Shown here: piece after piece, positions 1 through 58,436 of the stretch
How positions within the stretch are numbered: position 1 is the stretch's first letter
Layout of the letters: each line of letters starts with the position of its first letter
Assembly (NCBI RefSeq): GCF_055900595.2
Contig: NZ_CM148325.1
Strand: one strand, 5' to 3'
Length of the DNA: 64,000 bases
The notes under the pieces: model-generated
Told to the model about the DNA's origin: nothing
Seen by the model: only the letters and a program-made list of their open reading frames with translations
The model's database searches: none
Made by a program: the position numbers and the translations under genes

Positions 1-183
1 CTCCATTCTCGAAAAATTCATACTCTCAGCGAAACCATCATCAATCACTCATCCAGGCGTTTATGGGAGCGTCGCCAATGGCTGCTAACAATGCCAGACT
101 TCCCCGTTGCCGAAATTCCACATACCACAAATGGTCACAGGGATTGGGTGTTGAAATGATCCGGATGAGCATGTATCTTTATA

Positions 184-201
184 GTTATGTTATAACATAA
201 C
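184..201. promoter_or_regulatory. Zur-box-like perfect palindrome GTTATGTTATAACATAAC upstream of ykgM
   Basis: 18-bp perfect inverted repeat 12 bp upstream of the ykgM start; ykgM-ykgO is a known Zur-repressed operon. Confidence 0.6.
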
Positions 202-212
202 AGGTAAAAATG

Positions 213-476
213 ATGAAACCCAATATCCATCCTGAGTATCGTACTGTGGTGTTCCATGACACCAGTGTTGATGAGTACTTTAAAATCGGCTCGACTATCA
301 AAACAGACCGTGAGATTGAGCTGGATGGCGTAACGTATCCGTACGTGACAATTGATGTCTCTTCGAAATCGCACCCGTTCTATACAGGGAAGCTGAGAAC
401 AGTGGCATCAGAAGGAAATGTTGCACGGTTCACCCAACGTTTTGGTCGTTTTGTTAGCACGAAAAAGGGGGCGTGA
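213..476 (+). CDS. ykgM: 50S ribosomal protein L31 type B (zinc-independent paralog)
   Basis: 87-aa translation [16 protein letters not shown]... matches YkgM/RpmE2; second in-frame ATG chosen. Confidence 0.9.
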
Positions 477-616
477 TGAAAGTCCTTAACTCTCTGCGTA
501 CCGCAAAAGAACGCCATCCAGACTGTCAGATTGTGAAGCGAAAAGGACGGCTGTATGTGATTTGTAAATCTAATCCACGTTTTAAGGCCGTTCAGGGGCG
601 TAAGAAAAAGCGTTGA
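476..616 (+). CDS. ykgO: 50S ribosomal protein L36 paralog
   Basis: 46-aa [34 protein letters not shown]..., ATGA overlap with ykgM stop. Confidence 0.85.
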
Positions 617-1134
617 TTCATAATTCGCCGGATTAACGATATTTGTCTGATTAATAATCAGACCGGATTAATGTTGGTGTGTTTATAACACCAACATTAA
701 TTTCCTGGGGATATATTCTTCCTGTTCATTTAAAGCCAACTGCCTGACGTTTCTCTCCGAATATTCCATTATATTAATGTTGATTTGTTGACCAGCTTCG
801 CCCCTGTATGCTGGTATCAACTCTCTTTTAGACTGAACAAGCCACTCCGCCCCCTCCCTTTGCGGAGCAGCCTGCATTTACACTCAAACTGTTAAGATGA
901 TAAATGTGGTAAATCTGTTGGTACTAACATAAAAACGTTTACGCCACAGGAACAGCCTGATCCACCAGTAACCCCATCGCCGACGTTCGAGTGCCAGTTA
1001 GAGTAACGCGCACAGATGACTGCACGCAGTGCCCTGTCAAAGAGGCCATCGTTCCTGTGACAGCTGGCAGCCTTCGTTTAACTTCACTTAATTTGGCTCT
1101 TGGGGGGCTTACCGAACAGGGTAATGACTCCAAC

Positions 1135-1638
1135 TTATTGATAGTGTTTTATGTTCAGATAATGCCCGATGACTTTGTCATGCAGCTCCACCGATTTTGA
1201 GAACGACAGCGACTTCCGTCCCAGCCGTGCCAGGTGCTGCCTCAGATTCAGGTTATGCCGCTCAATTCGCTGCGTATATCGCTTGCTGATTACGTGCAGC
1301 TTTCCCTTCAGGCGGGATTCATACAGCGGCCAGCCATCCGTCATCCATATCACCACGTCAAAGGGTGACAGCAGGCTCATAAGACGCCCCAGCGTCGCCA
1401 TAGTGCGTTCACCGAATACGTGCGCAACAACCGTCTTCCGGAGCCTGTCATACGCGTAAAACAGCCAGCGCTGGCGCGATTTAGCCCCGACATAGCCCCA
1501 CTGTTCGTCCATTTCCGCGCAGACGATGACGTCACTGCCCGGCTGTATGCGCGAGGTTACCGACTGCGGCCTGAGTTTTTTAAGTGACGTAAAATCGTGT
1601 TGAGGCCAACGCCCATAATGCGGGCAGTTGCCCGGCAT
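1135..1638 (-). CDS. insB: IS1 InsB frame (transposase made as InsAB' by frameshifting)
   Basis: 167-aa ORF overlapping insA 3' end in -1 frame, typical IS1 organisation. Confidence 0.85.
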
Positions 1639-1832
1639 CCAACGCCATTCATGGCCATATCAATGATTTTCTGGTGCGTACCGGGTTGAGAAGCGGTGTA
1701 AGTGAACTGCAGTTGCCATGTTTTACGGCAGTGAGAGCAGAGATAGCGCTGATGTCCGGCGGTGCTTTTGCCGTTACGCACCACCCCGTCAGTAGCTGAA
1801 CAGGAGGGACAGCTGATAGAAACAGAAGCCAC
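1557..1832 (-). CDS. insA: IS1 protein InsA
   Basis: 91-aa translation [37 protein letters not shown]... Confidence 0.9.
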
Positions 1833-1949
1833 TGGAGCACCTCAAAAACACCATCATACACTAAATCAGTAAGTTGGCAGCATCACCAAAACCTGCAAAA
1901 ACTCTTAGATCTTTTACAGAGCGAAGATGGATTCAGTAGCAATAAGAAG

Positions 1950-4949
1950 TTGATTGGCAAATTTCGTTTGTTACCGAAAAAATTAACCACAAAGAAAAAA
2001 CATGAATCCCAAAATGGACACGTCCACTTTTCTAATCCTAAACGAGCAGCCGACCATTTATTTAATAATTTTGATCTGATACCAGAGTTTCGTATTATTG
2101 GTGACTTCCCGGTTGATAGTCACATTATCTCTGCACTATGGATTAACATGGTCGGGCATAAATTTGATGCCAGCTTAGATAACTGTTGCTATGGCGCGCG
2201 GCTAAAGCGTATTCGTAATGATGAATTATTTAGCAATGAGCAGGATAATCCATTCCATATCAGTGCAGTGGGTTCTTTTAGCCCCTACTTCCAGCCCTAC
2301 CAAAAATGGCGTGGTGATGGCTTAAAAGCTATACGTGACGAGTTGGAAAAAGATCGTGACATTATCGCCGCCTCACTGGATTTAAAAAGTTACTATCATT
2401 TTATTGATCCACTGGCTATAACCTCTGATGATCTCTATAACACACTAAACATAAAACTGACTGAGGATGAAAAAGCGTTTACTGCACAGTTAGCAGTATT
2501 CTTAAAGCACTGGTCTGACGGCGCAGCGGCATTTGGAAAGAAAATAGCGTACAAAACACCTGTTATTAATGGTGGTCTGGTCATTGGATTAACAGCCAGT
2601 CGGATCATTTCAAATATATTGCTACACCATTGGGATAAATTAGTCATTGAAAAACTATCACCAATTCACTACGGTCGTTATGTCGATGATATGTTCCTTG
2701 TAATACGCGATACAGGGAAAATTACTAATAATCACGAATTTATGTTATTGCTGCAAGATAGGCTTGGCAATGATTGCGTTTATTTGAAAAACGAGCAAAA
2801 ACAAATATGGCAAATACAGCAGGGCGAGCATTTCCAGGGTAAGACCACCATCCAGTTACAATCCGATAAGCAAAAACTTTTCGTGCTTCAAGGGAGGGCT
2901 GGAATAGACCTGCTCGACAGTATCGAAAAGGAGATCTACGAGCTTTCTAGTGAACACCGCTTGATGCCTTCACCGGATCAACTGGAACACTCAACCGCAG
3001 CTAAAGTCCTTTCCGCTGCCGGTAGTGTAGGTGAAAATGCCGATACTCTGCGCCGTGCAGATGGATTAACCATTCGTCGTTTGGGCTGGTCACTGCAATT
3101 ACGCTACGTTGAAACACTGGCACGAGATCTGCCTCCAAGTGAATGGAAAGAACAGCGGGAAGAGTTTTATCAGTTTGCCTACAACCATATTCTTAGGGCT
3201 GATAATCTATTTGCACATTTTAGTTATCTGCCAAGGCTGCTTGGCTTTGCTATCAGTATGAATGAATGGCAGCACGCGGAAACAATTGTACTTAAAGCTT
3301 ACGAATCCATCAACCTGTTGGCATCGGTGATTACTTCAGGTAAGGAAGTGAATATAAATGGTTGCAAAACTCGAGCAGTAAATGATCTTTGGCGCTGTAT
3401 AAAAGGCACATTAAGCTGGCTATTTGTTGATGCAGCGACACGATATTACAGTCCTGACAGATTATTTCTTGATAAACGTTCAAAGAAAGAAGAGTGCCTT
3501 GCGGATACATTTTTTAATCATATTTCACAAAGTCTGACGAATCTAAAGGATTTACTGGATCTTCGCTTTGATTCAGCAGATTTTTATTTAAAAGCGCCAT
3601 TGGTAGCTCGAGCTGATTTAGCAAAGGAACCTTATAAACAGATCGTAAAGAGTCAGTCGGCAGAAAAACTTGTTAATCAGCGTGATAGTAAAAAAGAAGT
3701 TAAAATACTGAAATTAATGAGCGACTCATCGCTTATTGATATTGACGTTATTAAGCTATTTTTGAAATCAACCAAGAATACCCGACTGGAAAAAGTGGCT
3801 AAAGGAAATCGTAAGAACGAAAGTTACCTACCTTACATTTTCCCTACACGTCCTTTAACACCCGCTGAAATATCAGAACTGGCCCCCGAATGTGTTGGAT
3901 TACCCTCCACATCCGACAAAAAACCAGATGAGAGACCGTCCACCATTTGGGCAAAATATACTCAAGCATTACGCGGAGTATGGATCAAACCGACGTTGCT
4001 AGCATCGGAGCAGGACTCAGATGAAGCGACAAAAAAAGCTCGGCCTAAGAAATTCATTCATATTGGCACAGACAGGAAACATAAAGTTGTCGTTGCGCTA
4101 ACCAGCATTAAAACAGAGGAGGACGACTGGGCTAAAATGGCCTGCAATAAATCTAACTTGTCCCGTTCAAGGTACCAGCGGATTTCTGAACTGGTTAATG
4201 CAACATTGAAACTATCTCCTAAACCTGATTATGTTTTATTCCCTGAGCTTTCAATCCCGTTACGCTGGGTTAACAGTATTGCTGATCGTTTGAGTTCGGC
4301 GGGTATCAGTCTAATTGCGGGAACAGAATACCGCCACTTAGACGATAATCAACTGAAGAGTGAGGCCGTACTTGTCCTTTCAGATAACAGACTCGGCTAT
4401 CCAGCGAGTGTCAAAATATGGCAACCCAAGCTGGAACCCGCCGTAGGTGAAGATGAGGCATTATTTTCAACTTATGGTAAGTCTTGGGACTCGACACTTA
4501 ATGTTAAACAACGTAAGCCGGTATATATTCATCATGGCGTCAATTTTGGCGTTATGATTTGCTCTGAACTCCAGAATAGTAAAGCGAGGATCCGTTTTCA
4601 GGGCGCACTCGATGCATTAATGGTATTGAGCTGGAATAAAGATCTAGATACGTTTGCATCGTTGATTGAATCAGCAGCGCTGGATATTCATGCCTATACT
4701 ATTTTAGTGAATAACCGAAAATACGGCGATAGTCGCGTACGTTCCCCGGCAAAAGAACCCTTTATGCGTGATATTGCTCGTGTGAAGGGCGGTGATAATG
4801 ACTTTGTGGTCGCTGCAACGCTGGATATCGACTCGTTAAGGGCATTTCAGAGCAGGGCAAAACGCTGGCCTAAAGGCGGCGATAAATTCAAACCGTTACC
4901 TGAAGGATTCCAGTTGGCAAAGAACCGCAAAAAGCTACCGCCAAAATAA
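1950..4949 (+). CDS. Reverse transcriptase fused to C-terminal nitrilase/C-N hydrolase domain (DRT type 1 / UG1-like); 5' end probably truncated by IS1
   Basis: RT motif A ASLDLKSYYHFID and motif C RYVDDMFLV; C-terminal FPELS...GVMICSELQ (Glu and Cys of nitrilase triad); first start is TTG and frame stays open back to IS1 edge. Confidence 0.7.
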   Translation: MIGKFRLLPKKLTTKKKHESQNGHVHFSNPKRAADHLFNNFDLIPEFRIIGDFPVDSHIISALWINMVGHKFDASLDNCCYGARLKRIRNDELFSNEQDNPFHISAVGSFSPYFQPYQKWRGDGLKAIRDELEKDRDIIAASLDLKSYYHFIDPLAITSDDLYNTLNIKLTEDEKAFTAQLAVFLKHWSDGAAAFGKKIAYKTPVINGGLVIGLTASRIISNILLHHWDKLVIEKLSPIHYGRYVDDMFLVIRDTGKITNNHEFMLLLQDRLGNDCVYLKNEQKQIWQIQQGEHFQGKTTIQLQSDKQKLFVLQGRAGIDLLDSIEKEIYELSSEHRLMPSPDQLEHSTAAKVLSAAGSVGENADTLRRADGLTIRRLGWSLQLRYVETLARDLPPSEWKEQREEFYQFAYNHILRADNLFAHFSYLPRLLGFAISMNEWQHAETIVLKAYESINLLASVITSGKEVNINGCKTRAVNDLWRCIKGTLSWLFVDAATRYYSPDRLFLDKRSKKEECLADTFFNHISQSLTNLKDLLDLRFDSADFYLKAPLVARADLAKEPYKQIVKSQSAEKLVNQRDSKKEVKILKLMSDSSLIDIDVIKLFLKSTKNTRLEKVAKGNRKNESYLPYIFPTRPLTPAEISELAPECVGLPSTSDKKPDERPSTIWAKYTQALRGVWIKPTLLASEQDSDEATKKARPKKFIHIGTDRKHKVVVALTSIKTEEDDWAKMACNKSNLSRSRYQRISELVNATLKLSPKPDYVLFPELSIPLRWVNSIADRLSSAGISLIAGTEYRHLDDNQLKSEAVLVLSDNRLGYPASVKIWQPKLEPAVGEDEALFSTYGKSWDSTLNVKQRKPVYIHHGVNFGVMICSELQNSKARIRFQGALDALMVLSWNKDLDTFASLIESAALDIHAYTILVNNRKYGDSRVRSPAKEPFMRDIARVKGGDNDFVVAATLDIDSLRAFQSRAKRWPKGGDKFKPLPEGFQLAKNRKKLPPK

Positions 4950-5295: not shown

Positions 5296-5766
5296 ATGGC
5301 TACAATCCTCACCACTGACAGCGATTTACTCGATCTATTGACCGTCCCCTTCAATGCCACCACGGATTTCACTGTCCTTGCTGACTACTGCGCCCGCTTT
5401 GCCGAAACCCTGATTGAAACCGACGATCCCGCGCTACGACTGGCGCTCTGCGGGCGGCTTCACGCGGCTCTTGCGCTATTGCAACCCACACTACACGACC
5501 CCATCCCACCGCATCTTACCGAAAGCCTGACCGTGGATACCCTTCCCGCCACACCAGAGCACTTTATTTCCGAACCTGATTCCTTGTGCGAATACTGCCT
5601 CGCACTACTCCAGCTTCTGCTGGAACGTCCGGCGGAACCAAAAATGGAGCAAACCCTGACCGGGCTGCTGTGTGAGCTGGTCTGGTATTTCACGGAAGGA
5701 CTCAAAGCCCCGCGCTGGATGCGTACCGCCGACGGCGTAAAATTTATCAGCGAGGTGGCCGCATGA
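5296..5766 (+). CDS. Hypothetical acidic protein (paralog at 52023-52487)
   Basis: 156-aa ORF with GGAGG RBS 7 nt upstream; second diverged copy in window. Confidence 0.6.
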   Translation: MATILTTDSDLLDLLTVPFNATTDFTVLADYCARFAETLIETDDPALRLALCGRLHAALALLQPTLHDPIPPHLTESLTVDTLPATPEHFISEPDSLCEYCLALLQLLLERPAEPKMEQTLTGLLCELVWYFTEGLKAPRWMRTADGVKFISEVAA

Positions 5767-5903
5767 TGCAACAGGACTGGCATTCCGCCGACATTATTGC
5801 GGTGCTGAAAAAGCGGGGAACGCCTCTGGCGGCACAGAGAAAAACTCATTGCGGAAGCGCTGTAAATATCGCCAGAAATCATCTGGTCCTCAAGGTACTT
5901 TGA
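5763..5903 (+). pseudogene. Ner/Nlp-like DNA-binding protein, N-terminal remnant
   Basis: MMQQDWHSADIIAVLKKRGTPLAA resembles the Ner/Nlp N-terminus, then frame degenerates; overlaps integrase fragment. Confidence 0.35.
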
Positions 5904-6103
5904 TAGCAAAGGCAAGCTGGCTGGTTCAGTCCGGAGTCTCTCTTCTTGCACTTAAAGAGATGGGAGGATGGGAAACTCTCAAAAAGGTTCAGAGATACGC
6001 TCACCTTTCAGCCGGGCATCTCACCGAGCACGCAAGCAAAATCGGCACGATCATAAGTCGCAATGGCACAAATACGGCACAGGAGGAAGCGTGGTGTATT
6101 TAA
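5849..6103 (+). pseudogene. Tyrosine integrase C-terminal fragment
   Basis: LLALKEMGGWETLKKVQRYAHLS is a typical recombinase C-terminus with catalytic Tyr region; no N-terminal domains upstream. Confidence 0.6.
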
Positions 6104-6126
6104 ATATGGGGTAACTACTTGATTTA

Positions 6127-6145
6127 AATGGTGCGATAATAGGAA
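6127..6145. repeat. att core repeat: partial direct copy of thrW 3' end (matches 26845-26864)
   Basis: AATGGTGCGATAATAGGA vs AATGGTGCCGATAATAGGA at the tRNA 3' end, 18 of 19 identical. Confidence 0.6.
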
Positions 6146-6345: not shown

Positions 6346-6705
6346 ATGAGAATGACCAGCCGTAAAAAAGAGATACTCAGTTATTTTGAGCCGGATAACC
6401 TAGAATGGGTGACAGGTGAGATTGGTGCGCCGCCGTTCGATGTGTCGGGCGTGGCCTACCTGCTTCATGGCATGGTGTCGTTCGATAAGCGCCACCAGCT
6501 CGAATCAACCCGGCGCACACTGGAAAGCATGGTTGCTGGTGGACTGCTTGAGCGGGTGACAGTGTATGAATCGCGTCAGGTACGGCGCGGCGGTGAGACT
6601 AACGCAACGGTCGTGCGCTACGGTTTACCCGGTCACTGCGCTGTTATGCGCGATACTGGCGGCGCTGATAACGCAATATCAGGCGAATACATGCGGGTCA
6701 GTTAA
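6346..6705 (+). CDS. Hypothetical protein
   Basis: 119-aa ORF, AAGGAA RBS 8 nt upstream; inverted repeat TTATTGT(N16)ACAATAA in promoter region. Confidence 0.5.
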   Translation: MRMTSRKKEILSYFEPDNLEWVTGEIGAPPFDVSGVAYLLHGMVSFDKRHQLESTRRTLESMVAGGLLERVTVYESRQVRRGGETNATVVRYGLPGHCAVMRDTGGADNAISGEYMRVS

Positions 6706-7240
6706 GAGCCTGCAATCTGTCGTTAATGTTGTTCAGGTCGTAAACCCGGCGTTCAATATCCAGCATCAGGAAATCGTGGATCTCGGCCTGTTCAGGATTA
6801 TCAGACTCTCTGGCCTGTAAGAGCAATTCATTGTAACCATGCAAACCACCCGAATTTTCCGCCGGGGTAGTGCCCTTCCCGCGCAAACAGCTAACAGGCT
6901 GGATACTGGTATCATGTGTTTGCTTCTCCAGCACAACAAGGCAATCCCACCAGTCGCCAAAGTCATACGTGTAAACCAGCTTGTCACCCTCATTCTGGAG
7001 CGCCGCCCATAGTGGCGTGATTGCCGCGTTACCCATGCTTTCATCCTCACCCCATACGCGATACTCGCTACCTGGATCACCTTTACGCCCTTTCTCGAAC
7101 ATATACAGGTGTTCGTCATTCCAGCCAAAAGCTAACTGGATCACGGCATGAAGTTTACTAAAGGGGATTTGCTCTGGAACCAGCACACGCCGCCATATTG
7201 GTGGTTTGCTGTCTCGGATGGTTATCTTTATCTGGTACAT
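6698..7240 (-). CDS. pRiA4b ORF-3-like family protein
   Basis: N-terminus MYQIKITIRDSKPPIWRRVLVPEQIPFSKLHAVIQLAFGWNDEHLYMF matches the characteristic start of this family. Confidence 0.6.
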   Translation of the reverse strand: MYQIKITIRDSKPPIWRRVLVPEQIPFSKLHAVIQLAFGWNDEHLYMFEKGRKGDPGSEYRVWGEDESMGNAAITPLWAALQNEGDKLVYTYDFGDWWDCLVVLEKQTHDTSIQPVSCLRGKGTTPAENSGGLHGYNELLLQARESDNPEQAEIHDFLMLDIERRVYDLNNINDRLQALN

Positions 7241-7720: not shown

Positions 7721-8176
7721 TTAGGAAGCCATCGAACGATAAAACTCAGCCGTTACACTTTTATCAATAACATTCTTGCACGGCGCATCTGATGGAACCC
7801 CTTCACGGGCCTCCAGCCACGGCTTTTCTTGGTGCGTCATCTGCTCCAGCTCATAAGCTGTATAACCGCCAAATACCTCATAGATTTCCTTTAGATGCTT
7901 TGACACATTCGCAGGTAACTCAGGGCAGGCAATCTCTTCGTCTATTGAGCGCCATTTGTAATCTGCAAATCTGGTATACAAATCTCTGGCTACAGGGCCA
8001 TGTACCCATGCTTCAAACTTGTCAGCAACCAGTTCTTCGCCATCATTCAGCGCCATGAACCAAGCATCAGCATAGAACACCATTTTTTGCAGTTTCAGCG
8101 GCGTCATAACATCCCCATGCTCTTGAGCAAAGCAAAGCAGGTAATCCGCTACGCTGTTAAGGGTTGTAACTGCCAT
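7721..8176 (-). CDS. Panacea-domain protein (DUF4065, GepA/SocA-like antitoxin family)
   Basis: MTPLKLQKMVFYADAWFMAL...EAWVHGPV...YELEQMTHQEKPWLEAREG pattern; start moved to internal ATG at 8176 with AGGAG RBS. Confidence 0.75.
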   Translation of the reverse strand: MAVTTLNSVADYLLCFAQEHGDVMTPLKLQKMVFYADAWFMALNDGEELVADKFEAWVHGPVARDLYTRFADYKWRSIDEEIACPELPANVSKHLKEIYEVFGGYTAYELEQMTHQEKPWLEAREGVPSDAPCKNVIDKSVTAEFYRSMAS

Positions 8177-8497
8177 TATCCAATCTCCTGCCGTATGTTT
8201 TCGTCTATAACTGTCCACTACCGTTAATAATCGCATATAACCACGGGTATTGCCCATCGTAAAATGCCATTTAAAGATTCTGCGTGATGGCTCACCATCC
8301 ACCGCGCAAGATACCCGGTGCGTTTGGCTGATAATCCGCAATTTGGTTGAAACCGTCCTGGAAACCTCAAGTTTGGAAACCAGCGACTTGCATCGTAGCT
8401 TTGCCATTCGGCGGTCATAGTTACTGCTATATCCCTTTATTGGCGAGACCTGCGAGAGGTTTTGTTGTTCGAATATATAAAGGTGAATAAAGGTAAT

Positions 8498-17602: not shown

Positions 17603-20362
17603 TCATTCTTCAGATGAGTTATAATCTCCTGGCTGGTAATTGAGTACATAAACGTTTATTTGTCGTCCCTGAATACGTGGTGATTTTCTTTGGTATCCAC
17701 GACCGCTGTTTGGTGGGGTTAGCATCCCGGCTTTTTTCAACACTTCAGCAAACTGTTTTGCGTTGAAACCACATGCGATCTCCTTTTCAAATGTGGCCGG
17801 GAATGTGTAGAAAATCATTGGGCTTTCGTCATGTTCTCCACGCTGACGGTATCCGGCTAAATCTTTGATGGGCAAATCTGCCGGGCTGTATGGAAATGGT
17901 GCAAAACGGCTAAGCCCATAGGCATTAAGAAATGCCTCCGTTTGTTCAATAATCTGCTGATGTTCTTTGTTACCTGTGCCGAACTCGCGCAACCATGCGT
18001 TATAGCTGTGCTGTATCGCATCACGGCATGTCTGAGCATCCCAGCCTGTTACAACCTCGCCTAACAGCAATGCGGCCTCCAGAATGGCAAATCGCGCGGC
18101 TACACGGTGAACCTGCTCACCATAATCGGATGGGATCAGGCTTCTCCATCTGCTTTCGCAATCACGAACGGTTTTAATAGCCTGTTGCTGGTGGTCTGCC
18201 AGCCATTTAATCCACTCACGCCCGGACGCGCCGTGGTGATGCTGGTAAGCGTCTTTCAGTGCGTCTGCGTGCTGTTTTCCGTTCTGGTAATCGTGAAAGC
18301 GTACTGCTTTACTCAACGGAATATTCAGCAGTCGCACCAGTTGCCCGGCTTTGGTTTTTCGCCCGGAAGTAGCGATAAATGTTTCTAAATCCATTTCTCC
18401 GGTGCTGATTGCCACTGTACGCCAACGTTTTAGATCCCGGTTTCCACCATCTTTAGCGCCTTGCAGTTTCCCTACACCGTTAAATAACGCATAGGCAGAC
18501 TGTGAAACGCTGACAGGATCAGCGCCCTGACCAACTTCATCAAGCGGCATTAGTCCGTCATTGTGGGCGGCGGCCTCATTTGCCAGCCCCAGCGCGGTTC
18601 CGTACCACGTCAGCCGCAGTAAATCAGGGTTGCCGTATAAGCTGCTCGCCACGTTTGCCGTGGTGGTCTTACCTGCGCTCGACTGCTCATAGAAATGAAT
18701 GCCGAACCCGTCAGCGCCCACCAGCCCAATCAATGGCGCTGCCAGTGCTGCGCCGATCCCGGTCATCATTGAATAGTTACCAAAGGCCAGACGCGCCACG
18801 TTATCACGCCAGCTTTTCGCGCTCCCTGAGACGGTATATCCGGCTGCGGCTGAGCTTCTCCCGCTGAACAGCACAGGATTTTCAGGTGTTCCGATGATTT
18901 CCCCATCAGGCATGATGTACGCTCCGCATTGCCAGCCAGTGGCATGAGCAACACGCCACAATTCACGAGAGCCACTGCGTTGTAGCCAGTCTGCCAGTAT
19001 TGCTCTGAGGCTGCTTTTGGTCGTGACATTTACCCCACCAGCTTTAAGTGTGCGCCATCCTTCACGTTCACCAATATCAGCCAGTGGAATGGCAGCGGTT
19101 GTCGGCGTTTCAGAACCAAACGACAGCCAGCGAAGAATGAGATACTGGTCTTTATCGTCTCTGCCAGTACCGATAACGCTTAACGGAGAACATAACCAGC
19201 TTTCGTTATTGATGATTTCTCCACTCTGGCTGTCAGCTCTCGGAGATACCCAATAAATACCATCCTCGCGGCTTTCTATTCTTGGTTTCAGTGGGTCGGT
19301 ATCCATAACCTTAAAATCGCTTCCCTCAATGGTCTGTGGCTCCTGTTTCACGCCATTACCCTGTGGTTGGTACATTGACTTATTGAACGCTTCTGTGGCG
19401 CATTTAATGCCGTGTTTTTGGTGGTAATCATTCCAGTCTGCTTTGTGATCTGTCGGGGGTAATGCCACCCATCCAGAAACAGATAAAGCTGCTTTTTCTG
19501 CTGCTATTCTCCCCGTGTTTTGTCTTCCTTCGCTGTGGTCGTTATCCGCAGCAATGATGATTTGTGCTGAAGGATATTTATCCCGCAGTACCTGGGCGAC
19601 ATATAACAGGTTCCCGGCATCAATCGCCGCCACTGTCAGCGCCTCTGGACGAATTAAATGGGCAGATAATGCCGTTGCCAGCCCTTCTGCGATTAAGATG
19701 CTCTGTGTTGTTTCTGGTGCGTTTATGGCGTGATATGCCCCCCGCTTTGCTGAACCTGTCAGGAGTCTTTTTTCACCATGTGAGGTAATAGTCTGTGCTG
19801 CTGTGACTGCGCCGGATTTATCCACCAGCGCCAGCAACAGAGATCCATCGGGCAACACGGGGAATGTAAAATCACCTACCCCTTTCGCAACCAGATAATC
19901 AGATTTGCCGTTTACAGCCTTTCTGCGCATGTCATCAAACTGACGGGAAAACGTATCCCGTCTTTGTTGTTCGTCCTTCTCTGCCCTTTTCAGGCGCTCC
20001 TGTTCGCGTCGCTGGCGCTCGGTTTCCAGTTGTTCCCGTTTCTGGCTGGTGGCTTCTGGTGTTTCCGTTGTCCGGTAATCAATACCCAGAACATCAGCGG
20101 CAAGAAGCGCCGCCTCTGTTGTGTCGCAGTTATTTACGCGTTTAATTAAATCCAGCCCATCACCAGCGCCGCACTGATTACAGATGAAGCTACCGCGCCC
20201 GTTGTCATCGAACCGGAATCGATCTTTGCCCCCACATGCAGGGCAGGGAGCATGACGGCGCGGAGAGTCAGGGACATTTATGTTCAGGCAGCCCAGCACA
20301 TGAGGCCAGTTGTTTTCAGACGCACTGATAACCTGACGGATAAGATCAATGTTTCGCATCAC
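17603..20362 (-). CDS. P4 alpha-like DNA primase-helicase
   Basis: 919 aa; zinc-finger CPACGG...CNQCG, TOPRIM-like acidic core IIIAADNDH, Walker A SSAGKTT. Confidence 0.85.
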   Translation of the reverse strand: MMRNIDLIRQVISASENNWPHVLGCLNINVPDSPRRHAPCPACGGKDRFRFDDNGRGSFICNQCGAGDGLDLIKRVNNCDTTEAALLAADVLGIDYRTTETPEATSQKREQLETERQRREQERLKRAEKDEQQRRDTFSRQFDDMRRKAVNGKSDYLVAKGVGDFTFPVLPDGSLLLALVDKSGAVTAAQTITSHGEKRLLTGSAKRGAYHAINAPETTQSILIAEGLATALSAHLIRPEALTVAAIDAGNLLYVAQVLRDKYPSAQIIIAADNDHSEGRQNTGRIAAEKAALSVSGWVALPPTDHKADWNDYHQKHGIKCATEAFNKSMYQPQGNGVKQEPQTIEGSDFKVMDTDPLKPRIESREDGIYWVSPRADSQSGEIINNESWLCSPLSVIGTGRDDKDQYLILRWLSFGSETPTTAAIPLADIGEREGWRTLKAGGVNVTTKSSLRAILADWLQRSGSRELWRVAHATGWQCGAYIMPDGEIIGTPENPVLFSGRSSAAAGYTVSGSAKSWRDNVARLAFGNYSMMTGIGAALAAPLIGLVGADGFGIHFYEQSSAGKTTTANVASSLYGNPDLLRLTWYGTALGLANEAAAHNDGLMPLDEVGQGADPVSVSQSAYALFNGVGKLQGAKDGGNRDLKRWRTVAISTGEMDLETFIATSGRKTKAGQLVRLLNIPLSKAVRFHDYQNGKQHADALKDAYQHHHGASGREWIKWLADHQQQAIKTVRDCESRWRSLIPSDYGEQVHRVAARFAILEAALLLGEVVTGWDAQTCRDAIQHSYNAWLREFGTGNKEHQQIIEQTEAFLNAYGLSRFAPFPYSPADLPIKDLAGYRQRGEHDESPMIFYTFPATFEKEIACGFNAKQFAEVLKKAGMLTPPNSGRGYQRKSPRIQGRQINVYVLNYQPGDYNSSEE

Positions 20363-25466: not shown

Positions 25467-26681
25467 TCATGCGTGTTTTTCAAACACCATATGCACCACA
25501 TTTCCGCCATGCTCGAGAGAATCCATATAGTCGGCATACCATTGAAGCATCTCCCGCCTTCCATCCAGATATTGCGCATGGTTGTATGTGCCACGAATTG
25601 AGTTCTTATCAACGTGAGCGAGCTGCGTTTCTATCCACGCGGTGTTATAGCCCTGCTCATGCAAAATCGTACTCATAGTGTGCCGGAACCCATGACCAGT
25701 TACACGTCCAGCGTAGCCAATGCGCTTAAACACTTGGTTTATGCTGGCCTCGCTCATTGTTTTCCTTGGATCATTGCGCCCGGGAAACATAAGAGGGTAA
25801 TTGCCTGTTATTTCTCTAATCTTCCCAATAAGCGAAAGAGCCTGCTCAGACAATGGCACAATATGAGGCCGCCGCATTTTCATACGTGAAGCGGGTATCT
25901 CCCAGATAGCCTTGTTGAAATCAATTTCATCCCATAATGCGCCACGTAGTTCGCCAGTCCGCAAGCCGGTGATAATCAGTAGACGAGCCGCCATAACAAC
26001 CAATGCGCTTCCTGAGTAACTGGACAATGCCTTGAAAAAATCAGGTAATTCTTTGGCTGTAAGGAAAGGGTAATGATTAGATTCATGGCCTTGCATCGCG
26101 CTAGTAAGGTCTGGTGCAGGGTTATACTCTGCGCGACCAGTGACTATTGCATAGCGGAAAACTTCCCCGCACCGTTGCCTCACTTTTTTGGCTTTTTCTG
26201 TAGCACCGCGCCCCTCGATGCGACGCAGCACATTCAGAAGTTCAAGTGGTTTGATTTCGGCGATGGGTTTTTTGCCAATGTAAGGGAACACATCTTTGTT
26301 GAAGGCTTCGAGGATGTCTGAAGCATAACCAGCAGACCATTTTTTTAATTTGCTGCTGTGCCACTCAAGGGCAATATCTTTGAAGGTGTTGTTTAACTGC
26401 GTTTCCCGGGCAATCTTTTCCTCTCGTTTCGCTTCCATCGGATCGATACCACCAGCGATACCTCTTTTCGCATCTTCACGTTTTGCCCGAGCATCGGCTA
26501 GAGTAACCTCAGGATAAACACCTAGTGCCAATAGCTTCTCTTTACCAGCTACACGATATTTAAGTCGCCAGTATTTACCTCCATTAGGTTTTACCAAGAG
26601 ATACAAACCGCCACCATCGGCCAGCTTGTAAGCCTTCTCTTTTGGCTTGGCTGTGTCTATTTGACGGGCATTGAGTTTCAC
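25467..26681 (-). CDS. P4-type tyrosine integrase
   Basis: 404 aa; MKLNARQIDTAKPKEK... N-terminus, C-terminal HGFRHT...H..Y catalytic region; adjacent to tRNA. Confidence 0.9.
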   Translation of the reverse strand: MKLNARQIDTAKPKEKAYKLADGGGLYLLVKPNGGKYWRLKYRVAGKEKLLALGVYPEVTLADARAKREDAKRGIAGGIDPMEAKREEKIARETQLNNTFKDIALEWHSSKLKKWSAGYASDILEAFNKDVFPYIGKKPIAEIKPLELLNVLRRIEGRGATEKAKKVRQRCGEVFRYAIVTGRAEYNPAPDLTSAMQGHESNHYPFLTAKELPDFFKALSSYSGSALVVMAARLLIITGLRTGELRGALWDEIDFNKAIWEIPASRMKMRRPHIVPLSEQALSLIGKIREITGNYPLMFPGRNDPRKTMSEASINQVFKRIGYAGRVTGHGFRHTMSTILHEQGYNTAWIETQLAHVDKNSIRGTYNHAQYLDGRREMLQWYADYMDSLEHGGNVVHMVFEKHA

Positions 26682-26734: not shown

Positions 26735-26846
26735 CTGACCGTAGATTTTGAGGGACTTTAGTAGACGTCAAAAGACGAACGGGGCTTTAATACGCGGATT
26801 ATAAGGGGTTTTGAAAGACTTTAGTAGACTTGGGGAGATGTTTGAA

Positions 26847-26922
26847 TGGTGCCGATAATAGGAGTCGAACCTACGACCTTCGCATTACGAATGCGCTGCT
26901 CTACCAACTGAGCTATATCGGC
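26847..26922 (-). tRNA. thrW: tRNA-Thr (anticodon CGU)
   Basis: Reverse complement GCCGATATAGCTCAGTTGGTAGAGCAGCGCATTCGTAATGCG...TATCGGCACCA; anticodon loop TTCGTAA. Confidence 0.9.
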
Positions 26923-41000: not shown

Positions 41001-42981
<1,981 letters not shown>

Positions 42982-52653: not shown

Positions 52654-53268
52654 TCATATATCCGTAAGTGATTTAAAATCAGCAACACGGGCAAATTCCT
52701 TTTTCGGTAGTACCAAAGACTCTAGTCGTGCTGATAGCAGTTCAACCATAAACTCTGCCCACCCTAAGTCAAATTCATCACAAAGAGGTCCACGACTTTC
52801 ATTTATAACTATTTTCCAATTACAATTTTTTTCTAATTTCCAGAATAAAACCTCTCCACTATCAGTTATACCAAACGGGAGAACACCATCTTCCGATGGA
52901 AAAAAATTGTATGGGAATTTTTCGCCATGAAGTTTGACCTCAGCAAGAGCCGAATTTATTTCCTTTGCTTGCTCGATTAAATTAATATATGGATTATCAA
53001 CAAACGGGCTAAAGATCCAAAGGAACCCATTTATTCGTCCTATCCCATATTCATCAATAAAGGATTTATAATCTTCTGGCAACAAAATACCTAGCCTAGA
53101 CTCTGCTTTCCGCCAGTCATTGACGCCATTATAATCGTCAATAAGGTTTTTATAATCATTAGACAATTGAATACCGAGTTCAGATTCTAACCGTCCCCAA
53201 TAAGTAGTTATTTTCTCATTAATAACTGCTGGTGGCGGAATTATTTTCTTTATCATATCAATAGACAT
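52654..53268 (-). CDS. SMI1/KNR4 (SUKH-1)-like orphan immunity protein
   Basis: Two LxxDYKxxIDxYxG-type repeats (LSNDYKNLIDDYNG, LPEDYKSFIDEYGIG); downstream of Rhs gene. Confidence 0.6.
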   Translation of the reverse strand: MSIDMIKKIIPPPAVINEKITTYWGRLESELGIQLSNDYKNLIDDYNGVNDWRKAESRLGILLPEDYKSFIDEYGIGRINGFLWIFSPFVDNPYINLIEQAKEINSALAEVKLHGEKFPYNFFPSEDGVLPFGITDSGEVLFWKLEKNCNWKIVINESRGPLCDEFDLGWAEFMVELLSARLESLVLPKKEFARVADFKSLTDI

Positions 53269-53313
53269 TGTCAGTTCCCTATTGGATTCAGTATAGAATC
53301 ATTAAGCACAGTT

Positions 53314-53511
53314 TCAATTTTCATAATCCAGAATTGGCTCATCTAATGCTTCTGAATAACGAAGAAGATTCTCTCGCAAATCTTCAAGGGATTCACCTCG
53401 CGGAGACACTGGTTTTTCACTATATCCACAAACCTTACCTGCTTCATTATAATATACCTCATAGATAGCAAGCTCCCCTTTAAATTGCATAACTCTATAA
53501 TTCCAAGTCAT
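53314..53511 (-). CDS. Small protein immediately downstream of Rhs C-terminal toxin domain, candidate cognate immunity
   Basis: 65-aa ORF starting 8 nt after the Rhs stop. Confidence 0.45.
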   Translation of the reverse strand: MTWNYRVMQFKGELAIYEVYYNEAGKVCGYSEKPVSPRGESLEDLRENLLRYSEALDEPILDYEN

Positions 53512-53519
53512 ATCTCCTC

Positions 53520-54383
53520 CTATTTTTTATGATAATCAACAATATCATGAATAATTATTTCATTTTCTGTTTCAGAATATAAAACTCTATCTCCCCCTCT
53601 TCCTTTACCACTTCCTGGTAAGTCGGCTGCTGATTTCCCTTTTAAATCACCATGTAAAGAATGCTGGTTTTTTCCTGACTCACCACGAGAAAGCATAATT
53701 TTAATAGCATCATAGGCTTCAGCTTGTTTTCCTTTGAGCGCATCCCCCTTCTTCGCCGCCAAATCCTCCTCTATGATGGTTTTCATTTGGGTAGGACATT
53801 TTTCACCTGCCAGCCCCCACGGGTCGCACCAACCCACCGGATTATGCACATAAGACTGCGTATCCAGCCCGCCGCTCAGTTTCAGCGGATCCTGGCTTAA
53901 ATACTGCCCCGTCCCGGCGTCGTAGTAGCGGTGTAAATTATACCACAGCCCGCTCTCCTCATCCTGCCACTGGCCCATGAAGCCCGCATCGCAGCTTTCA
54001 CGCTCACTGTCCGGCGAGTCGTTTGCAGCCAGCCCCCACAGGCTGCGGTGTTTCGTCCACACCTTCCGCCCGTTCGCGCAGTACATCTCCTGCGGCGCGC
54101 CGTCCGGGCCGGTCACTACCGGGTAAAAATAACTTCTGTCATCATTCGCCGCCCGGCTTTCCTTCGCCAGCAGTTCAAATCTGCCCCCGGTAGTGCCACT
54201 GCTCCCGTAGCGCCGGGCTGCCGTCTGCATAGCGTTTCTCACTTGTGGAAAGCGCCATCCCAAGCCACTGGTAGCGTACTTCGCTGATGGCGTGCGGGCT
54301 TCGTTTCCACGCTGCCCGGATAACGCAGCGTTTTGCCGTTCGTCTGCCAAAGGCGTCGTAGCTGTACTGCCACACTTCACCAT
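53520..54383 (-). CDS. Rhs C-terminal segment: end of core (PxxxxDPxGL) plus about 100-aa variable toxin domain; separated from core ORF by frameshift
   Basis: GLWYNLHRYYDAGTGQYLSQDPLKLSGGLDTQSYVHNPVGWCDPWGL then divergent C-terminus ending RVLYSETENEIIIHDIVDYHKK. Confidence 0.75.
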   Translation of the reverse strand: MVKCGSTATTPLADERQNAALSGQRGNEARTPSAKYATSGLGWRFPQVRNAMQTAARRYGSSGTTGGRFELLAKESRAANDDRSYFYPVVTGPDGAPQEMYCANGRKVWTKHRSLWGLAANDSPDSERESCDAGFMGQWQDEESGLWYNLHRYYDAGTGQYLSQDPLKLSGGLDTQSYVHNPVGWCDPWGLAGEKCPTQMKTIIEEDLAAKKGDALKGKQAEAYDAIKIMLSRGESGKNQHSLHGDLKGKSAADLPGSGKGRGGDRVLYSETENEIIIHDIVDYHKK

Positions 54384-57300
54384 CTGGTGTCTTTATCTCG
54401 CGCAGACGGTCGAAGTCATCCCAGCGGTAGCGCCACTCCTGCGGGCGAAAGCCGAGTTTTTGGTCGGTGCGCTTTGTCACCCTGCCGCAGGCGTCGTATC
54501 CGTAGCGGCTGTCACCGGCCTGGTTCACACATTCATTATTGTACTGGTGCTGCGACAGAATACCGTTTATCCGGCTTTCCGCTATCTGCTCATTGACCGT
54601 ATAGCGGTAGCGCTCTTCCTGTGCCGGACCACTGGCGTCCAGCCGCAGTACGCTGGTTATCTGGTCGCGGGCATCGTACTGGTAGCGCGTTTCCCGCTCC
54701 GTACGCGTTTTCGACCACACTTCATGCCCGGTCAGGCGGCCCGATTTATCCCACGCGTAACGGTGTTCGCCCAGCGGTCGCCACGATGCCACGCTCTGGT
54801 GGCTGCCTGCCAGCCGCTCTGCGCCCTGTTTTTGCCATGCCGTACGTCCGCAGGTGTCGTATCCCTGCTCCTGCATATAGACCGCATGGTTCAGCGGCGT
54901 CTGCGCCAGCCAGCTTTCCTCATCCTCCGGGCGGTAACGCCGATTTTTTTCAAGGCCCGCGGGGGAATGACTGAAGTCCATCCGGTGACCGTTGCTGCGG
55001 TAGCCCGTCAGAATGCCCGAAGCGTCGTATTCTCTCTGTGTTTCCCCGTCCGGCGTTGTGGTGCCAGTCAGCCTTCCGGCTTCGTCGTAACGGTACTCCG
55101 TGCGCTGGCCGTCCTGCTCTTCCGCCACCAGACGATGGCGTTCGTCCCACTCCAGTTTTACCTCACTGGTGAGCGTATAGCCTGCTTCACTGCCGTCGCT
55201 GCGCTCATACACCTGCGCACTCACCATCCGGTCATGGCGGTCGTACTGATAGCTGAGTTTCTGATGCTCGCCGCTGATGGTCGCCACCCGGCCATATTCA
55301 TCCCTCGCATAGCGCCATACGCTGCCGTCCGGGCGGTGTTTTTCTGCCAGCCGGCCCTGTTCATCACGGATATAGACGGTTCTGCGTCCCGACCAGTCCT
55401 CCTCCCCGGCCATCTGGCCCGCCGCATCGTAGTACAGCCGCCACTGCTGGTTGCCGCTGCGCGTAAGCTGCGTGAGCCTTGCGGCACCATCGTAGTCGCA
55501 AAGTATCCGCTGCCCGCCCGCGTCCTCCACTTCCCGCAGCAGGTCAAATGCCCCGTGGCGGTAGCGCGTGGTCTGGCCCATGGCCCCGGTGTGGAGAGTG
55601 ATTTTGCCTTCACCATCATAGCGGAAGGTTTCAGCGCCACCGTCGGCCCGGATTACTGCGCTCAGTTTCTCATGCGGGTTATCGGCACCGGGGCGGTACT
55701 GCCAGTTCACGCTGCGCCCTTCAGCATCCACCAGCCCCGTCAGCCGCAGCCAGCGGTCTTCCGTGTAATGGGTTGTGCGGCCTTCACCATCGGTATGGGA
55801 AAGCAGGCCACCGTGAGCGCTGTAGCTCCACTGTTCGTGGCTGCCGTCCGGGTACTGTATCTCCTTGAGCAGACCGTCTTCGGTATGACGGTACTGCCAG
55901 TTCTGCCCGTTCACCTCCCGGCGGATAAGATTCCCTTCGGCGTTATAATGGTACGCCGCCGTGGTGCGGTGGTCCTGGTATGCCGTAACCTGACCAAATT
56001 CATCCCACTGCCATTCACGTTTACGCCCGTTCTCGTCCGTTTCGCTCAGGATACGCCCGGCATAATCGCGTTTTATCTGAGTAATGCGCCCACCCGGCTG
56101 GCGAATACACAGCGGCTGGTCGTATTCGTTACGCTCCCATTCAGTGATACGCCCCAGCGGGTCACGCTGTTTTTTCAGCAGCCAGGACTCATCGAACCAC
56201 AGCGTGGTGGTGGCTCCGGTGGCATCGGTGTAATCGGTTCTGCGCTCCTCCGGGAAGTAGCGGAAGGTGTCGTTATACAGGCCTTCCTGTGTGCCTGTGG
56301 CAGTCACCCGGCCTTCATCGTCATAGCGCAGGTGGAAGTGCGTCGGGCCGTTGTCGCGCCAGGAACTCAGCCAGCCCTGTTCGGTATAGGTATAATGCAA
56401 CGCGCCATTAAAGCGGGTCTGCACATCGCTCAGTCGCTGTTCATCGCCGTGACTGATATAGTCATAGCGCACCAGCTCGCTGCCGTCTGACTCGTCGATC
56501 ACACGGAATATCTGCCCCTGCGGGCCACACATCACCCGCAGATTCAGGCCGCTGCTGTGGGTTACGTTTGTCAGTTGGCCGATGACGTTATAGGTGAAGC
56601 GAATTTCGTTGCGGTTGCGGTCTTTTATTGCCGTTAGCCGCAGGCGGCGTGCGCCGGGGGAGATGGGCGTAAAGATATAACCCAATTGTGAGTATTCGTC
56701 GAAGATAATAGCCCGCTCACGGTTTCCCAGGAGGCGATAGTGCGGGACAAGCAGGTTACGGCTACTGTATGGTGCCTGCTCCGTGGAGTAGGCCAGACAT
56801 AGCCCCTCAGCATCAAAGTAGGTGACGTTTTTCCCGTTGCAATCGAACTCCAGAAACTGCGACCAGTTACACAACCAGCGACTGCCCAGCAAACCACTAA
56901 CCGGATGTCGGCCTGTATAAGCACGTTTCAGCGTCAGCGGTAAAATATGCGGATAGTTGAAATCAGTTCGGTAATCCAGATATTCACCCGTTCCGGTATC
57001 CACCGGATCGCTGAACCCCTGACTGATACGCTCATTTGCGGCTCTGTTTAACTGCTTTGCTCCCCATAGAGCTGTTAACACTTCCAGACTTGATACAACA
57101 GATTGCTCCAGCACCGTCATATCGGCATTAATCGGCCCATACTGTCCGGTCGTCTTATCAGCCGTAATGGTTTTACATCCTTCCTGAATAACTGCCGAGC
57201 AGGTAATTTTATGGCCCTTACGCGCCAGCGGCAGGCTGTTGACGGAAATAATTTTGCTCCCTTCCACTATCTGTGGAGGAGGACTGCCCGGATCCTTACT

Positions 57301-57942
57301 ACATTCAACCGGATCAGTGACGCGAGCTACCGCTTTTCCTTCAAAAAAAACATTAGGAGAGCCTTCTACAATCTGTCCGGTTTCAGATGCCCAGCGGGAA
57401 CCAATTACCATCGCTGCGCCACCGACAAATCCACCAGCTAATCCCCCGGCCCCGGCAGCAACGGTGGCAGCCAGCACACCCAATGCCGCGCCCCCTGTAG
57501 CGACAACCAGAGCTCCCACTGCAATCCCTACAATAAGTCCACCGATTAACCCACCAATAGCACCCAGAAAGGAATTGTTATGAACAATGTGATGACCCAC
57601 ACACGCAGGTATATCTGTTGGGCCGGAAACTGCGTGATCTTTACCCCAGGTATCCATGAACCAGTCACCTGCTTTGGTGCCCAGCCATCCCCCCAGCATC
57701 CCGCCAACCAGTCCGGCAATCAAAGGGCCTCCAAATCCTGCAACAGCTTTGGCTATTCCGGCTGCACAGGTGTTTGCTGCTGCGGCTGCCAGTCCTACCT
57801 TTGCCGTTGCTCCCACCATACTGACAGCCATTATTCCAGTACTGGCAATATGTCCTGTGGTAGCAATACTCTCCACTGTTTCGGCATTACTGTCCCGTTG
57901 ATCCAGCTCCGCTAACTTCTCCTGCGCGCTTTTTTCCGTCAT
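54175..57942 (-). CDS. PAAR-Rhs protein, N-terminal and YD-repeat core (frameshifted relative to C-terminal segment)
   Basis: Gly-rich hydrophobic N-terminus, PAAR-like GSPNVFFEGKAVARVTDPVEC, many YD repeats (RYDDEGR, RYDGEGK, YRYDEAGRL). Confidence 0.85.
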   Translation of the reverse strand: MTEKSAQEKLAELDQRDSNAETVESIATTGHIASTGIMAVSMVGATAKVGLAAAAANTCAAGIAKAVAGFGGPLIAGLVGGMLGGWLGTKAGDWFMDTWGKDHAVSGPTDIPACVGHHIVHNNSFLGAIGGLIGGLIVGIAVGALVVATGGAALGVLAATVAAGAGGLAGGFVGGAAMVIGSRWASETGQIVEGSPNVFFEGKAVARVTDPVECSKDPGSPPPQIVEGSKIISVNSLPLARKGHKITCSAVIQEGCKTITADKTTGQYGPINADMTVLEQSVVSSLEVLTALWGAKQLNRAANERISQGFSDPVDTGTGEYLDYRTDFNYPHILPLTLKRAYTGRHPVSGLLGSRWLCNWSQFLEFDCNGKNVTYFDAEGLCLAYSTEQAPYSSRNLLVPHYRLLGNRERAIIFDEYSQLGYIFTPISPGARRLRLTAIKDRNRNEIRFTYNVIGQLTNVTHSSGLNLRVMCGPQGQIFRVIDESDGSELVRYDYISHGDEQRLSDVQTRFNGALHYTYTEQGWLSSWRDNGPTHFHLRYDDEGRVTATGTQEGLYNDTFRYFPEERRTDYTDATGATTTLWFDESWLLKKQRDPLGRITEWERNEYDQPLCIRQPGGRITQIKRDYAGRILSETDENGRKREWQWDEFGQVTAYQDHRTTAAYHYNAEGNLIRREVNGQNWQYRHTEDGLLKEIQYPDGSHEQWSYSAHGGLLSHTDGEGRTTHYTEDRWLRLTGLVDAEGRSVNWQYRPGADNPHEKLSAVIRADGGAETFRYDGEGKITLHTGAMGQTTRYRHGAFDLLREVEDAGGQRILCDYDGAARLTQLTRSGNQQWRLYYDAAGQMAGEEDWSGRRTVYIRDEQGRLAEKHRPDGSVWRYARDEYGRVATISGEHQKLSYQYDRHDRMVSAQVYERSDGSEAGYTLTSEVKLEWDERHRLVAEEQDGQRTEYRYDEAGRLTGTTTPDGETQREYDASGILTGYRSNGHRMDFSHSPAGLEKNRRYRPEDEESWLAQTPLNHAVYMQEQGYDTCGRTAWQKQGAERLAGSHQSVASWRPLGEHRYAWDKSGRLTGHEVWSKTRTERETRYQYDARDQITSVLRLDASGPAQEERYRYTVNEQIAESRINGILSQHQYNNECVNQAGDSRYGYDACGRVTKRTDQKLGFRPQEWRYRWDDFDRLREIKTPDGEVWQYSYDAFGRRTAKRCVIRAAWKRSPHAISEVRYQWLGMALSTSEKRYADGSPALREQWHYRGQI

Positions 57943-57972
57943 CTGTTCGTCCTTCCCGCTGAACTGGCTGGG

Positions 57973-58404
57973 TTATTTATCCTGTGGCATTCCAAAACAA
58001 AAATTCAATAATGCTCCCCGCATCGCTTTACGATCCTCCTCTGCCAGCGCCTGCGTTGAGGAATAGGTCAGCGTCAGTACTTGTCGCTCGTTCAGGATTA
58101 CCAGCAGCAACTGCTGTATCATCACCCCCTTGTTATCCCAGCTAAATTCCCAGTATTCCGCCGGGCGCTCCTGCACATGACAGCGTTCTTCTACGGTGAA
58201 CACCATTTTCGACAGTTCGGTACGGAATTTCTTTTTCTGCACCGCCAGATAGTCATCAAACTGCGCGCCTTCCGGCAATATTTCACGAGTGACAACTACA
58301 TTTGCTCCGGCAACCGCACTTAGTACTGGCGTCAGAATATTCATACTGCTGTCCTGCCAGTTTCCCGGCAGAGTGAAATGCCCTTCATTAATGAGATATT
58401 GCAT
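57973..58404 (-). CDS. DUF1795-like (Eag-family) T6SS effector chaperone
   Basis: 143-aa ORF in the canonical position between vgrG and the PAAR-Rhs gene. Confidence 0.6.
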   Translation of the reverse strand: MQYLINEGHFTLPGNWQDSSMNILTPVLSAVAGANVVVTREILPEGAQFDDYLAVQKKKFRTELSKMVFTVEERCHVQERPAEYWEFSWDNKGVMIQQLLLVILNERQVLTLTYSSTQALAEEDRKAMRGALLNFCFGMPQDK

Positions 58405-58436
58405 TGTTATTTTTCCCTGAAAATTAATGAAATGGA

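Follow-up and report, generated by a model that had tools for sequence, protein, structure and literature searches.

The stretch of DNA analysed here (the window: 64,000 nucleotides of contig NZ_CM148325.1, RefSeq assembly GCF_055900595.2) carries a copy of IS1 between the backbone genes ykgM and ykgO on one side and the remnant of a defence island on the other. The question raised by this locus is how an insertion sequence without a target-site duplication came to form the junction. A first-pass annotation, made from the sequence alone, had pointed to IS1-mediated deletion or recombination rather than to simple insertion, a proposal that we assessed by comparison with related genomes.

Positions 1120..1887 of the window, exactly the coordinates first proposed for the element, hold a complete 768-bp IS1 of the IS1A type on the minus strand, as judged by its inverted repeats, Pfam domains and identity to IS1A. 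It is bounded by GGTAATGACTCC at the start and GGCAGCATCACC at the end. The 23-bp terminal inverted repeats are imperfect (complementary at 18 of 23 positions), with IRR (1120-1142) at the left end, towards ykgL, and IRL (1865-1887) at the right end, towards the island. The minus strand encodes both insA (1557-1832, 91 aa; Pfam Zn_ribbon_InsA and HTH_Tnp_IS1) and insB' (1135-1638; Pfam DDE_Tnp_IS1, E=2e-78), so that transposase is read towards ykgL, and a simulated -1 frameshift at the A6C frameshift site (1575-1581, element coordinate 307) produced an uninterrupted InsAB' fusion of 232 aa. The element is 99.87% identical to a copy in GF60 and 99.6% identical to one in NCTC9008, both annotated as IS1A in RefSeq, and no other copy of IS1 occurs in the 64-kb window. 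Judged by its sequence, this is an ordinary, intact and coding-competent IS1 that is probably active.

The 9-bp flanks of the element, ACCGAACAG on the left (1111-1119) and AAAACCTGC on the right (1888-1896), are identical at one of nine positions, that is, there is no target-site duplication. With the boundaries moved by as much as 3 bp, no duplication of 8-10 bp came to light, and no word longer than 5 nt was common to both flanks within 25 bp of the IS1 ends, in agreement with the initial observation that the flanks do not form a direct repeat. IS1 target duplications are 8 or 9 bp long (PMC12428005), and missing duplications are mostly ascribed to adjacent deletion or to recombination between IS copies (PMC11708052). 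The missing duplication therefore concerns the history of this copy and not its identity as IS1.

Six complete genomes (E200086, E400634, E500002, E600003, AST85 and Z0117EC0005) matched both flanks at 100%, and in these genomes the flanks are collinear but lie 20,360 bp apart, the opposite of the contiguous flanks with a recoverable 9-bp duplication that would have spoken against the first-pass proposal. In E200086, position 4,008,811 is the last of the left flank and 4,029,172 the first of the right one; both order and orientation are those of the window, and 20,360 bp lie in between. The breakpoints coincide exactly with the IS1 termini: identity to E200086 ends at window position 1119 and restarts at 1888. 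At the corresponding empty sites of E200086, ACCGAACAG is followed directly by ATGACG on the left and ATTACTTG directly by AAAACCTGC on the right, with no homology between the two sequences. The left side (1-1119) matches E200086 at 1,118 of 1,119 positions, up to position 1212 of the E200086 locus (L004), in which ecpR starts at 1795; the right side differs at a single position over 4,247 bp, and the remainder of the window is 99.5-99.98% identical to E200086. When the 20,360-bp segment was searched across the 64-kb window, nothing matched. Two more distant genomes, 042 and FDAARGOS_1281, also have the undeleted arrangement, and because these distant genomes share that layout, the undeleted state is ancestral and the state of the window derived. 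The event appears to be recent, as the flanks are near-identical to those of the relatives and the truncated gene to the right of IS1 has acquired no further lesions.

The alignment to reference genomes that the first-pass annotation had called for thus defines the missing DNA as 20,360 bp running from the spacer before ecpR through nucleotide 148 of a reverse transcriptase (RT)-nitrilase gene. According to the E200086 sequence, this segment comprises, from left to right, 582 bp that make up the rest of the ykgL-ecpR spacer; the E. coli common pilus (ECP) operon ecpRABCDE; ykgJ and yagU; the periplasmic aldehyde oxidoreductase genes paoABCD; genes for an MFS transporter, an alpha/beta hydrolase and a LysR regulator; a ykgR-like fragment; an AbiEii and AbiEi pair (PADLOC E=3e-116 and 9e-79); and, from the UG5-large RT-nitrilase gene, the promoter and nt 1-148. 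Seventeen intact genes lie within it. Its loss would deprive the strain of the ECP pilus, of Pao aldehyde oxidoreductase and of AbiE. The ykgR fragment is a partial copy at the far end of the RT/AbiE island that is present in 042, E200086 and FDAARGOS_1281 (L001 9626-9694, L004 19188-19256); full-length ykgR normally lies just upstream of ykgM, and the partial copy hints at an older rearrangement of the region.

On the left, the backbone is preserved up to the IS1 terminus. It includes ykgM (213-476, plus strand) and ykgO (476-616, plus strand), which encode zinc-independent L31 and L36 paralogues and were assigned from their open reading frames and the RefSeq annotation of the 99.9%-identical E200086 stretch. 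The genes that follow ykgO had been thought absent from the window. This holds for the ecp cluster but not for ykgL, which is present at 651-877 (minus strand) as a pseudogene, frameshifted by the loss of a single base pair; the same gene is annotated in E200086 as 'ykgL, frameshifted'. The lesion is visible as a single-base gap in the alignment with the intact ykgL of EA7, and the nearest relatives are likewise frameshifted. Between ykgL and IS1, 242 of the 824 bp of the ykgL-ecpR spacer are retained (878..1119, no strand assigned), the last 9 bp being ACCGAACAG.

On the right, IS1 adjoins a UG5-large RT-nitrilase (DRT) gene that lacks its 5' end (1888..4949, plus strand; nt 149-3210 of a 1069-codon gene). 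Genes of this type are documented anti-phage systems (PMC9226505; bioRxiv 10.64898/2025.12.16.694600). The intact gene of 042, FDAARGOS_1281 and E200086 spans 3,210 nt and encodes 1069 aa, annotated in RefSeq as 'RNA-directed DNA polymerase' or as a hypothetical protein, and mapping to E200086 places window base 1888 at nucleotide 149 of that gene. The 999-aa remnant still matches the PADLOC profile RT_UG5-nitrilase (E=7.7e-288, 956 bits) and keeps both the YVDD RT motif and the nitrilase region (RTasNitrilase, E=1.7e-43), but it enters the profile only at position 79, whereas the 1069-aa E200086 allele aligns from profile position 9 and scores 1034 bits, ~79 bits higher. The window gene therefore does not span the full-length profile and is a truncated member of the UG5-large RT-nitrilase group. 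Because residues 1-70 contribute these 79 additional bits, the N-terminal extension represents conserved coding sequence, and IS1 has consequently cost the gene its promoter and 49 codons. In the remnant, the earliest in-frame codon that could serve as a start is a TTG at 1950; upstream of it there is no in-frame ATG, GTG or TTG, and the frame remains open back into IS1. A consensus scan of the sequence upstream of 1950, including the end of IS1, found no promoter-like site directed towards the truncated gene, the sole promoter-like match in the IS1 end facing inward, at the position and in the orientation expected for the insA promoter. The defence gene has probably been silenced and would now be a silent pseudogene. 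No transmembrane partner gene was seen downstream of it in the window.

The start of this gene is annotated inconsistently, as a 1069-aa product in RefSeq and a 999-aa product in Logan assemblies, and the profile favours the longer version. An exact look-up of the 999-aa protein returned 16 Logan contigs; in the five places listed, AbiEi or AbiEii lies upstream and there is no IS1. We therefore rejected these matches as a sign of other truncated loci, given their intact upstream context: the Prodigal-type calling used for Logan assemblies selects the internal TTG start even in intact loci (L016-L020). For the same reason, the 999-aa reading frame of the window will look intact to gene callers. 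Of 5,426 complete E. coli genomes, 260 (~5%) have the RT-nitrilase gene, in all cases with at least 99% identity. In strain WP9-S17-ESBL-11 (NZ_AP022287.1 4058589-4058736), the match to the RT gene ends after 148 nt (window 1888-2035), which suggests an independent disruption.

We searched for the two junctions by megablast, using 140-bp probes for both breakpoints and both IS1 orientations, in the 5,426 complete E. coli genomes, and with exact 33-35-mer scans of metagenome contigs. Neither junction was found in any of the genomes, in either IS1 orientation, nor in the metagenome contigs, and the junction in the window is thus strain-specific among available genomes. Two hits covering at least 80% of a probe proved to be IS1 copies at yrhA with chance flank similarity, and hits H1 and H2, which seemed to combine IS1 with the RT gene, were produced by the search tool joining an unrelated IS1 in phoE. 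A precursor, with IS1 and a duplication around it at one breakpoint (as for adjacent deletion) or at both (as for recombination), was likewise found neither in the 5,426 genomes, among which only six are close relatives, nor in the metagenome contigs.

IS1 was, by contrast with these exact sites, present at other positions of the ykgL-ecpR spacer in 27 genomes (of ~5,060 with the spacer among the 5,426 searched), at ~17 distinct positions, with 10 in the orientation seen in the window and 17 in the opposite one. The spacer (L004 971-1794 in E200086) is 824 bp long and AT-rich, its core having a G+C content of 27.8%. The ecp promoter region is bound by H-NS and IS1 transposition is H-NS-dependent, which might explain a preference of IS1 for this spacer. 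Near the RT breakpoint, no IS1 occurred in either orientation in the 260 genomes with the RT gene. At the rate seen in the spacer, ~1.4 insertions would be expected among these 260, and the attempt to date the two junctions by hot-spot frequency failed, as the RT gene is too rare for zero against ~1.4 to be informative.

The ten genomes with a spacer IS1 in the orientation of the window were inspected on the far side of the element. In seven of them ecpR is intact and the insertion is flanked by a duplication: 9 bp in PSJ-12 (GAACACCTG), HS30-1 (CAGTTTTTC) and 22AR0434 (AAATGCAAG), 8 bp in CFSAN029787, VL46 and MS20675, and 18 bp in GF60 (ATGAACACCCATAACCAT). The GF60 copy (L014 4113-4916) is a simple IS1A insertion upstream of ecpR whose 18-bp repeat differs from the usual 8-9 bp. 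The other three (EA7, SL124 and NCTC9008) lack a duplication, and the DNA beyond the element is unrelated. Across these seven and three genomes, a duplication in the spacer thus tracks simple insertion and its absence tracks rearrangement. EA7 and SL124 have the left junction in common and differ in their right-hand DNA, the 'one end fixed, other end variable' pattern of rearrangements from a resident IS1, and rearrangements radiating from a spacer-anchored IS1 have therefore occurred in other strains. With these control insertions carrying duplications and a collinear gap in the window, the view of the first-pass annotation that deletion or recombination, rather than simple insertion, shaped the locus is borne out.

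A single IS, no duplication, collinear flanks and ends that fall at the IS termini are, at the level of sequence, the signature of an IS-mediated deletion. The account towards which we lean, with moderate confidence, is a recent IS1-mediated deletion of 20,360 bp that arose as an adjacent deletion from an IS1 resident in the ykgL-ecpR spacer. IS1 would have inserted in the AT-rich spacer with a 9-bp duplication of ACCGAACAG, and its IRL end would then have undergone intramolecular replicative transposition to AAAACCTGC, 20 kb away in the UG5 RT-nitrilase gene. In the 'adjacent deletion' outcome, the chromosome would keep one IS1 joined to the new target, and a non-replicating circle comprising the intervening DNA and a second IS1 copy would be lost. 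We infer that transposition chemistry rather than RecA recombination was responsible and that the left junction is the older of the two, an order to which the hot-spot argument points weakly. Adjacent deletion from the spacer is favoured because it requires fewer events and because the spacer is a demonstrated IS1 target, a soft preference, as the present data fit either this route or recombination between two copies. The latter, which we regard as possible though distinctly less probable, would involve two independent IS1 insertions in the same orientation, with duplications of ACCGAACAG and AAAACCTGC and the RT-side site at codon 50 of the RT-nitrilase gene, followed by RecA-dependent recombination that excises 20 kb and leaves a hybrid IS1. 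Its product would be identical to that seen (one IS1, no duplication, collinear flanks), IS1 is multicopy in the lineage (each record of the closest relatives has 5-16 matching places, most of them probably IS1), and recombination between IS copies and adjacent deletion are the two usual explanations for a missing duplication (PMC11708052). It requires, however, two insertions and a recombination in place of one insertion and one transposition, no genome has an IS1 at or near the RT breakpoint in either orientation, and the six near-identical relatives are without IS1 at both sites.

That IS1 arrived and 20 kb were lost simultaneously, with neither junction pre-existing, seems to us improbable. 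Such insertion with deletion has been proposed for IS5 and IS481 (PMC11708052), and it would agree with the lack of either junction in any other genome or metagenome searched and with closest relatives that are IS1-free at both sites; but missing intermediates are weak evidence with only six close relatives, the mechanism is not established for IS1, and a classical adjacent deletion gives the same structure. If this one-step reading were true, in a spacer that acts as a strong IS1 target, the ecp pilus locus and the defence island next to it would be subject to repeated remodelling by IS1. More improbable still is an assembly artefact in which two IS1 copies around the 20-kb segment were collapsed into one and the segment dropped. 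A collapsed direct repeat would give exactly such a junction, yet the 64 kb of the window are unbroken across other repeat-prone sequence (fragments of IS3 and IS110, an Rhs gene and a second island). Such continuity suggests a finished assembly or one from long reads, to which a repeat of 768 bp poses no difficulty, and short-read assemblers break at IS copies rather than collapsing 20 kb. Assembly collapse, or relocation of the segment elsewhere, is possible and would show as IS1 followed by ATGACGTAC and as GGAATTACTTG followed by IS1. Inversion was rejected, the orientation of the right flank being preserved. A simple IS1 insertion whose 9-bp duplication later decayed by point mutation is conceivable in general terms alone and practically out of the question here: near-identical genomes have 20,360 bp between the flanks, the one on the right starts within a gene, and eight changes in 9 bp are not credible where the surroundings have accumulated ~1 substitution per several kb. 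Mapping of the breakpoints against E200086 refutes it.

The DNA to the right of the truncated gene is a degenerate thrW-associated island in which only a 203-bp fragment of the integrase is left, consistent with the first-pass annotation's description of a backbone joined to an island remnant. Based on the annotation of 042 and of 100%-identical E200086 DNA, it contains a hypothetical gene (5296-5766, plus strand, 156 aa), a small HTH gene (5763-5903, plus strand) and the integrase fragment (5912-6114, plus strand), and mapped coordinates place an imperfect copy of the thrW 3' end at 6122-6144 on the plus strand. A second integrative element of ~20.7 kb (6145-26840) is also located in thrW, where it forms a tandem array with the old RT island, and has imperfect repeats of the thrW 3' end at its borders (6122-6144 and 26841-26863). 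It encodes an intact integrase (25467-26681), a TOPRIM/DUF927 primase (17603-20362), a Panacea-domain protein (7721-8407) and a pRiA4b-ORF3 protein (6698-7240), as well as a lytic transglycosylase and DNA-ejection genes; it was found in 47 complete genomes and is absent from the nearest relatives of the window. Farther along, E200086 has ~2.3 kb of additional DNA at window position 41806/41807, which includes a group II intron (ltrA) within a remnant of IS3 and is missing from the window. Collinearity with E200086 stops at 52868, where that genome has only a truncated tssA adjoining tRNA-Asp. The window has a type VI secretion effector region at 52654-60656, with a SUKH-family immunity-like gene (52654-53268), a PAAR-Rhs protein (54175-57942) and VgrG (58437-60656).

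The changes in ECP, AbiE and the RT-nitrilase are relevant to adhesion and phage-sensitivity phenotypes. The element itself resembles IS1 of the IS1A/IS1R type from E. coli and Shigella in its 768 bp, its ~23-bp imperfect repeats, its insA and insB' genes and the -1 frameshift at A6C that yields a 232-aa InsAB', and differs from fresh insertions in lacking the 8-9-bp target duplication, which is missing because of the associated deletion. The truncated gene corresponds to the UG5-large RT-nitrilase systems (Mestre et al. 2022, PMC9226505; Sinorhizobium meliloti DRT11), with an end-to-end PADLOC match in the relatives. It has the YVDD motif, the C-terminal nitrilase region and a degenerate, integrase-associated island in common with these systems, and in the window its promoter and codons 1-49 are missing. 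Turlan and Chandler reportedly described replicative IS1 deletions in 1995 (cited in PMC12428005), and the classical deletions of the gal region promoted by IS1 are said to go back to Reif and Saedler in 1975. Like the classical adjacent deletions, the junction described here has a single IS, no duplication and collinear flanks, and the deletion starts exactly at the IS end and extends into the neighbouring DNA. In the classical cases, however, the starting insertion was known and the deletions were directly observed, whereas here the starting insertion is deduced and recombination between two copies is possible. The IS150 deletions of the E. coli long-term evolution experiment (PMC11708052) are also similar in having an IS at the centre of the deletion, sizes of up to tens of kb and no duplication, and differ in the IS family and in being dated within a known pedigree. 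The phenomenon is thus already known, IS1-associated deletions having been recognized since the 1970s, and the present locus is one more strain-specific example.
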